NCBI RefSeq assembly: GCF_048403405.1
Contig: NZ_CP183129.1
From: Escherichia coli
GTDB taxonomy: Bacteria; Pseudomonadota; Gammaproteobacteria; Enterobacterales; Enterobacteriaceae
Direction: 5' to 3' (one strand)
Length of the DNA: 64,000 nt
The notes below the pieces were generated by a model. It was not told the DNA's origin and searched no databases. It saw only the letters and a list, made by a program, of their open reading frames with translations. Position 1 is the stretch's first letter. The number at the start of each line of letters is the position of its first letter. Shown piece by piece: positions 14,853-15,075 of this stretch. A program made the position numbers and the translations under genes.

Positions 14853-14935
14853 TGATGCGACGCTTAACGCGTCTTATCAGGCCTACAGTGCACAGAGCCG
14901 TAGGTCGGATAAGGCGTTCACGCCGCATCCGACAA
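14853..14935. repeat. BIME: two REP palindromes
   Basis: tgatgcgacgcttaacgcgtcttatcaggcctaca and gccgtaggtcggataaggcgttcacgccgcatccgac in opposite orientations. Confidence 0.8.
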
Positions 14936-14984
14936 CAGGTACAAACGCCACGATAAAAAAATGGCACTGAAGGTTAAATACCCG

Positions 14985-15075
14985 ACTAAATCAGTCAAGT
15001 AAATAGTTGACCAATTTACTCGGGAATGTCAGACTTGACCCTGCTATGCAATACCCCCACTTTTACAATAAAAAA
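14985..15075 (+). promoter_or_regulatory. isc operon promoter region with IscR autoregulatory sites
   Basis: Sequence ...aaatagttgaccaatttactcgggaatgtcagacttgaccc... upstream of iscR matches the region known to carry IscR binding sites; exact site boundaries not resolved by eye. Confidence 0.55.

Follow-up and report, generated by a model that had tools for sequence, protein, structure and literature searches.

The window, by which we mean the whole 64-kb stretch of DNA that was analysed, is Escherichia coli chromosome and carries the trmJ-iscR region, as seen from its open reading frame (ORF) list and from the RefSeq annotation of identical sequence. The gene order is csiE, yfhR, suhB (minus strand), trmJ (plus strand), iscR (plus strand), iscS, iscU, iscA, hscB, hscA, fdx and iscX. 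An 801-base query around the feature found a match in 5,425 of 5,426 complete E. coli genomes, with 100% identity to strain VCSW5. The gap between trmJ and iscR measures 269 bp (14842-15110), and the segment under study, 14853-15075, begins 4 nt within the first of two REP palindromes (REP1) and ends within the iscR 5'UTR, so that it takes in both REPs, both IscR sites and the promoter. Our analysis determined sequence identities, structures, positions and population variation for the following features.

14101-14841, plus strand: trmJ coding sequence, tRNA Cm32/Um32 methyltransferase (ORF list; RefSeq of VCSW5, identical in sequence, and of K-12)
14836-14933: polymorphic cassette that differs between E. 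coli lineages, running from the last sense codon of trmJ through its stop codon and the BIME
14839-14841, plus strand: trmJ stop codon TAA
14849-14886, minus strand: REP1, Z2-type, 38 nt (TGTCTGATGCGACGCTTAACGCGTCTTATCAGGCCTAC), in inverted orientation, with CTAC on the plus strand at 14883-14886
14887-14899: 13-nt linker (AGTGCACAGAGCC) between the CTAC and GTAG ends, by direct reading
14900-14934, plus strand: REP2, Y-type, 35 nt (GTAGGTCGGATAAGGCGTTCACGCCGCATCCGACA), with GTAG at 14900-14903
14934-14977: spacer common to all E. coli alleles
14978-15002, plus strand: IscR Type-1 site A (ATACCCGACTAAATCAGTCAAGTAA), 1 mismatch to the consensus, identical to K-12 and conserved in 25 enterobacterial loci
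15003-15027, plus strand: IscR Type-1 site B (ATAGTTGACCAATTTACTCGGGAAT), 3 mismatches to the consensus, including the -35 hexamer
15007-15043, plus strand: putative sigma-70 promoter, from geometry and homology
15043-15110, plus strand: iscR 5'UTR, with an A-run, a hairpin CCCC-GGGCA-GGGG (15076-15088) and the Shine-Dalgarno sequence GAGGTGA (15096-15102)
15111-15599, plus strand: iscR coding sequence (ORF list, RefSeq annotation)

The original prediction placed two opposed REP palindromes just 3' of trmJ, and both are present, at 14849-14886 and 14900-14934, with REP1 beginning 8 nt past the trmJ stop codon. Direct reading and a repeat finder agree on two imperfect palindromes in opposed orientation. 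The stem of REP1 pairs GTCTGAT with ATCAGGC and that of REP2 pairs GTCGGAT with ATCCGAC, REP2 having an additional inner stem of GGCG and CGCC; in both stems AA stands opposite GC as an internal mismatch, and both carry the GTAG tag, on the plus strand at 14900-14903 and on the minus strand at 14886-14883. These are the features described for E. coli REPs, namely an imperfect palindrome of 30-40 nt with GTAG at the foot of the stem and a two-base stem mismatch, and binding by TnpA-REP needs both the GTAG and the mismatch (Ton-Hoang et al., PMC3333891). The elements were typed by alignment to the tandem unit of K-12 REP325, whose palindromes were labelled Y and Z2 by Qian et al. (PMC4550694). 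The reverse complement of REP1 equals the Z2 unit at 35/37 positions, compared with 30/35 for Y, and REP2 equals the Y unit at 32/35 positions, compared with 27/35 for Z2. In a BIME-2, a short linker joins a Z2 REP to a Y REP of opposite orientation, and the tandem copy number varies between strains (PMC3333891). REP1 and REP2, with their 13-nt linker, show this arrangement and constitute one BIME-2 unit, and here too the number of tandem units varies from strain to strain. The element shares with the BIME-2 family the inverse Z2 and Y pair, the short linker, the GTAG, the AA/GC mismatch and the variable number of tandem copies, but this strain has only a single unit.

Shuffled controls set these palindromes well apart from background. 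With up to 2 mismatches allowed, the window holds 4 copies of the REP tail motif CTTATCMGGCCTAC, where 0.47 would be expected, and none of 100 shuffles reached 4. As RNA, the REP pair is predicted to fold into one long hairpin of -49.5 kcal/mol (z = -4.6; 0/200 shuffles as good), and the single REPs, in single-strand folds, reach -8 to -10.9 kcal/mol, better than nearly all shuffles, with z between -2.8 and -3.2 for the REP1 hairpin and between -3.9 and -4.7 for that of REP2. The sequence thus combines a palindrome with a stem-loop, the GTAG and stem mismatch, and membership of a family with many dispersed extragenic copies, megablast giving a median of 11 near-identical places per genome for a query whose genes are single-copy. 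A second REP cluster in the window, also extragenic, lies directly after the pepB stop codon (22236-22310) in a BIME-1/RIP-like arrangement: a REP that is only partial (...CGTCTTATTTGGCCTAC) is followed by 35 nt of linker, in which ATCCAATAGATTG is IHF-like, and then by a Z1-like REP of short length (GTAGGCCTGATAAGCGTAGCGCATCAGGCA). Other matches in the window at the Rfam gathering level were AaHKsRNA22 (20808-20880, minus strand, near iscX; 45.3 bits, just over threshold), ryfA and IS128 (23128-23741, beside the timP toxin gene) and sroE (36541-36632).

The repeats and the promoter behave very differently across E. coli. The RefSeq feature table of K-12 (NC_000913.3) lists no repeat features at trmJ-iscR, and the sequences were therefore aligned directly. 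K-12 MG1655 has the same locus, flanking genes and REP types, and the comparison with its iscR promoter that had been suggested gave 100% identity from 14937 to past the iscR start codon. The description of the region as core-genome architecture consequently holds for the promoter, where 14937-15148 equals K-12 base for base, and fails for the BIME, which is a polymorphic insert. K-12 differs from the window in having three units rather than one (a gap of 451 rather than 269 bp) and in a few REP point differences. One Z2-Y unit is found in the window and in E. albertii, two in BL21(RP), with a gap of 360 bp, and three in tandem in both K-12 and the B-strain T7Express, with a gap of 451 bp; NS-NP030 has one unit with a linker of 23 nt, and the K-12 linker reads AGTGAACAGAACC. 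One of the point differences falls at position 14851 in the REP1 stem, which is T in the window and C in K-12, BL21(RP), T7Express, NS-NP030 and E. albertii (GTCTGAT versus GCCTGAT); the T would give a G-U pair in plus-strand RNA and a C-A mismatch on the other strand.

Allele frequencies were estimated from an evenly spaced sample of 60 rows together with two counts over the whole collection. In that sample about half of the genomes carry one unit and about 12% carry two. Query coverage fell below 80% in 681 of the 5,426 genomes (12.6%), and every such genome that was sampled had the three-unit allele. In 1,439 of the 5,426 (26.5%), O157:H7 included, the BIME is replaced by an unrelated GC-rich dispersed repeat of ~95 nt, present at a median of 5 places per genome, which may be Box C-like; Rfam gave no meaningful match to this replacement repeat. 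The O157:H7 allele (L003, 437-566) departs from the window sequence past ...AATAAGGCC (window 14835), and the two are alike again from AACAGGTACAAACG (window 14934) on. The exchange reaches from within the final trmJ codon (window 14836) to about 14933, so that the O157-type TrmJ is one residue shorter, ending in ...NKA* as opposed to ...NKAE*. The variation in repeat number is an instance of published BIME-2 behaviour and no discovery. Downstream of iscR, VCSW5 carries a 129-bp insertion straight after the stop codon (L002, 4001-4130; equivalent to a point just past window 15599), just before the iscRS stability element that Rfam places, at gathering level, in the iscR-iscS gap (15600-15709). 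This insertion, absent from the window and from K-12, holds ATGTAAGCTCCCGGAGATTCGT, which resembles an ERIC/IRU repeat.

Turning to the promoter side of the gap, IscR-binding sequences had been predicted in front of iscR, and two matches to the 25-bp Type-1 consensus ATASYYGACTRWWWYAGTCRRSTAT (PMC6599224) lie at 14978-15002 and 15003-15027. They are the only two matches in 64 kb, where 0 are expected, and elsewhere in the window the lowest number of mismatches is 6. The two sites abut, and iscR starts 84 nt past site B, which agrees at 29 of 30 bases with the published 'iscRB' oligo of [2Fe-2S]-IscR binding assays (PMC12594620). Besides matching the consensus, both sites are positioned over or next to the -35 and -10 elements, the latter assigned by homology: site A is upstream of the -35, and site B covers the -35 and the spacer. 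The promoter elements are a -35 TTGACC (15007-15012), a 17-bp spacer and an extended -10, TGT-CAGACT (15027-15035, with CAGACT at 15030-15035). A scan for the sigma-70 consensus called no promoter in the gap, since CAGACT matches the -10 consensus at only 3/6 positions. At the same offset after site B, Pseudomonas, Stutzerimonas and Pseudogulbenkiania have CATACT, CATAAT or TATAAT, and GGAATGTCAGACT is invariant in the 25 enterobacterial loci. Transcription probably starts near 15043, to judge from the layout of these elements. A start at ~15043 also fits the IscR literature, in which the E. coli sites are reported at -65 to -41 (A) and -40 to -16 (B). The footprinted layout in P. aeruginosa, at -67 to -43 and -42 to -18 (PMC6599224), agrees with a start near 15043 as well.

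The P. aeruginosa iscR promoter likewise has two abutting 25-bp Type-1 sites, A and B (PMC6599224), and its site B has ATAGTTGACC...TTACTCGG as here and spans the -35, with the -10 at the same offset. It differs in the -10 itself (CATAAT/CATACT in Pseudomonas, CAGACT with an upstream TG here), in the 5'UTR, and in its neighbourhood, trmJ being ~0.9 kb away from the P. aeruginosa-type iscR or not found, whereas the two genes are adjacent in the window. An IscR 'site C' is also mentioned in the P. aeruginosa source (PMC6599224); near the promoter in the window, a search for a third IscR site found nothing closer than 10 mismatches to Type-1 or 8 to Type-2. The best, if poor, nearby Type-2 IscR-like match, with those 8 mismatches, is the A-run and hairpin of the 5'UTR (15070-15089), which on the minus strand (15089-15075) also resembles an intrinsic terminator facing the promoter. 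The hairpin, A-run and Shine-Dalgarno sequence of the 5'UTR are kept across Enterobacteriaceae; in 25 of their loci the hairpin stem and the A-run are retained and the loop is variable.

In order to compare genera, one genome per species was scanned with the site-B core ATAGTTGACCNNNTTACTCGG, which gave 61 loci. Approximately 47 of the 61 lie upstream of an iscR homologue, nearly all of which start 35-108 bp after site B, and these iscR-linked loci range from Enterobacterales to Pseudomonas, Alcanivorax and some Betaproteobacteria. Because part of site B had to match exactly for a locus to enter the set, the conservation of site B in the 25 enterobacterial loci is by construction; independent conservation of the flanks covers site A, the -10 region, CTGCTATG around +1, and the A-run with the CCCC/GGGG hairpin, and the ribosome-binding region GAGGT-AAGTAAGAC-ATG is likewise kept. 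What occupies the space between the trmJ stop and site A is far less constant. Other REP pairs are found in the same gap in Salmonella, Klebsiella pneumoniae and Trabulsiella odontotermitis TbOT1.10, and GC-rich CCCTCTCCC/GGGAGAGGG repeats in Pseudocitrobacter, K. oxytoca and K. spallanzanii, while Buttiauxella, Cedecea, Franconibacter, T. odontotermitis 01 and T. guamensis have no insert. In these insert-free loci (L030, L011, L019, L062 and L046) the gap is only ~126-130 bp, and the trmJ stop abuts or overlaps the first bases of site A. Directly upstream of site A in the window lies GGCACTGAAGGTTAA (14963-14977), which is kept as GCACNGAANGNNAA in the insert-bearing genera; in T. odontotermitis 01 and T. 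guamensis the bases homologous to 14963-14977 are the last trmJ codons. This short segment may be left over from an earlier 3' end of trmJ, or it may belong to the operator as an unrecognised part.

Taken together, we are very confident that the gap between trmJ and iscR is made up of two unrelated and already known elements, a BIME-2 unit and the iscR promoter. From published work on the same families we infer IscR binding, repression and the effects on RNA described below. For the promoter, [2Fe-2S]-IscR is known to bind Type-1 sites and repress PiscR, and loss or oxidation of the cluster relieves the repression (PMC12594620). Occupying sites A and B, [2Fe-2S]-IscR would occlude RNA polymerase, so that iscRSUA-hscBA-fdx would be repressed when cluster supply is sufficient and released when the cluster is lost or oxidised. 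This mechanism is established for K-12, and by sequence identity it should apply equally here.

For the BIME, the literature summarises roles of REP and BIME elements in mRNA stability and in the binding of gyrase, IHF and Pol I (PMC3184786); BIMEs bind gyrase, which cleaves BIME-2 elements as well (PMC3184786), and are processed by TnpA-REP (PMC3333891). REPs are non-autonomous repeats recognised and cleaved by RAYT/TnpA-REP, which would explain their spread and the changes in copy number at a locus. At the end of the trmJ mRNA, the BIME would form a very stable hairpin, which could block 3'-to-5' exonucleases and so define and stabilise the trmJ 3' end, and which could dampen, without fully stopping, transcription that runs into the isc promoter. 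Being less than 15 nt from the stop codon, the BIME may also reduce translation of trmJ by stalling ribosomes as they terminate. For REPs no more than 15 nt past a stop codon, Liang, Rudd and Deutscher (Mol Cell, 2015) reportedly found impaired termination and less translation of the gene in front, and the 8 nt before REP1 would fall in this range. Any role of the BIME at trmJ-iscR is probably modulatory at most, and dispensable, given that 26.5% of E. coli genomes and several genera are without it.

The stability of this hairpin straight after the stop codon, and the fact that the gap holds no other terminator candidate, could suggest instead that the BIME is a Rho-independent terminator of trmJ that fully insulates the isc promoter. 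However, neither the single REPs nor the composite hairpin run into a U-tract, the bases that come next being ...CCGACAACAGGTACAAACGCC with no T-run past 14936, and a scan of the plus strand over 14842-15110 found no terminator-like site, for which reasons we reject the BIME as an intrinsic terminator. Moreover, in the insert-free genera, where the trmJ stop abuts IscR site A, there is no room for a terminator and trmJ transcription must enter the isc promoter region. We regard full insulation as unlikely on these grounds. Less likely still is that the BIME is an RNA gene of the naRNA4 (REP325) type, acting with HU on chromosome folding and not on trmJ or isc expression. REP325/naRNA4 (Rfam RF02564) does consist of near-identical Z2 and Y palindromes (35/37 and 32/35), the same building blocks as here; transcription is reported for most REPs, and in vitro a pair of hairpins is enough to produce the effect (PMC4550694). 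A permissive Rfam scan also gave matches to RF02564 over the BIME (42.4, 31.8 and 29 bits), yet the best of these (42.4 bits, 14903-14966) is below the gathering threshold of 59.5 and the others are lower; at that threshold Rfam found nothing within 14853-15075, and these sub-threshold naRNA4 matches were the only ones in the permissive scan. Between yjdM and yjdN, REP325 consists of six units of 100 bp with other linkers, whereas the window has one unit, whose linker and REP order are not those of REP325, and the element is missing from a quarter of E. coli genomes.

Two further accounts have a negligible probability. The repeats contain an open frame of 40 codons (14848-14970, TTG start), which could be read as a gene for a small protein, but it is built of REP sequence and has no evident ribosome-binding site, its length and content are altered in the tandem-unit alleles, and it is lost in the O157-type allele; we rejected it as a gene for its composition, its instability among alleles and the missing ribosome-binding site. 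ORFs derived from REPs are a familiar annotation artefact. That the palindromes and IscR-like motifs are chance matches has in its favour only the generic risk attached to short motifs, and is contradicted by the shuffle controls, which led us to reject chance palindromes, as well as by the identity to K-12 and by cross-species conservation in front of iscR. We therefore retain the reading of a BIME-2 unit followed by the iscR promoter.

One structural feature cuts across the promoter and the 5'UTR. The segment 15026-15045, spanning the -10, the discriminator and +1, forms an imperfect inverted repeat of ~20 bp with 15081-15100, where the Shine-Dalgarno GAGG of iscR is located. The predicted duplex (-28.4 kcal/mol) was stronger than that of every dinucleotide shuffle of either arm (2,000 shuffles); among 858 local genomic controls, 0.9% paired as strongly. 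The helix dominates the predicted fold of any RNA that starts upstream of the promoter, and in the transcript from PiscR it cannot form, leaving in the predicted fold only a small hairpin and a free Shine-Dalgarno sequence; the complete 141-nt fold does not stand out (z = -1.1). Twenty sequences, namely the window and 19 Escherichia-Salmonella-Klebsiella-Enterobacter loci, retain the helix (-25.8 to -33.8), and the 8 others, which belong to more distant genera, have a weak one (-6.9 to -21.4). Two-sided covariation was not seen in the helix, and both arms have other reasons to be conserved.

These observations, together with the changing contents of the gap, allow two speculative readings of the locus, as a swappable insulator slot and as a read-through lock on iscR translation, to which, taking both under one estimate, we assign a low probability. 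For the slot, the gap between the trmJ stop and site A would be a recurrent landing pad for repeats, and the amount of trmJ transcription that reaches isc would depend on what occupies it: one, two or three BIME units, a GC-rich BoxC-like repeat, other REPs, or no insert. For the lock, the helix, present in read-through RNA only, would either keep iscR from being translated or give rise to an RNase III site. A literature search for read-through between trmJ and iscR or for REP data returned nothing relevant. If the lock were true, IscR would be made only from its own autoregulated promoter, and the helix could explain how an autoregulator is shielded from upstream read-through.

The feature as a whole is already known, and nothing new is hidden in the repeats. 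The original prediction's view of the region as ordinary is supported, the REP/BIME-2 family and PiscR both being known, and the main value of this analysis is a negative result, in that these repeats need no renewed flagging. At the same time, the cassette constitutes a natural allelic series for testing the influence of REP clusters on neighbouring expression, and this series adjoins a tightly autoregulated promoter that is exposed to supercoiling.
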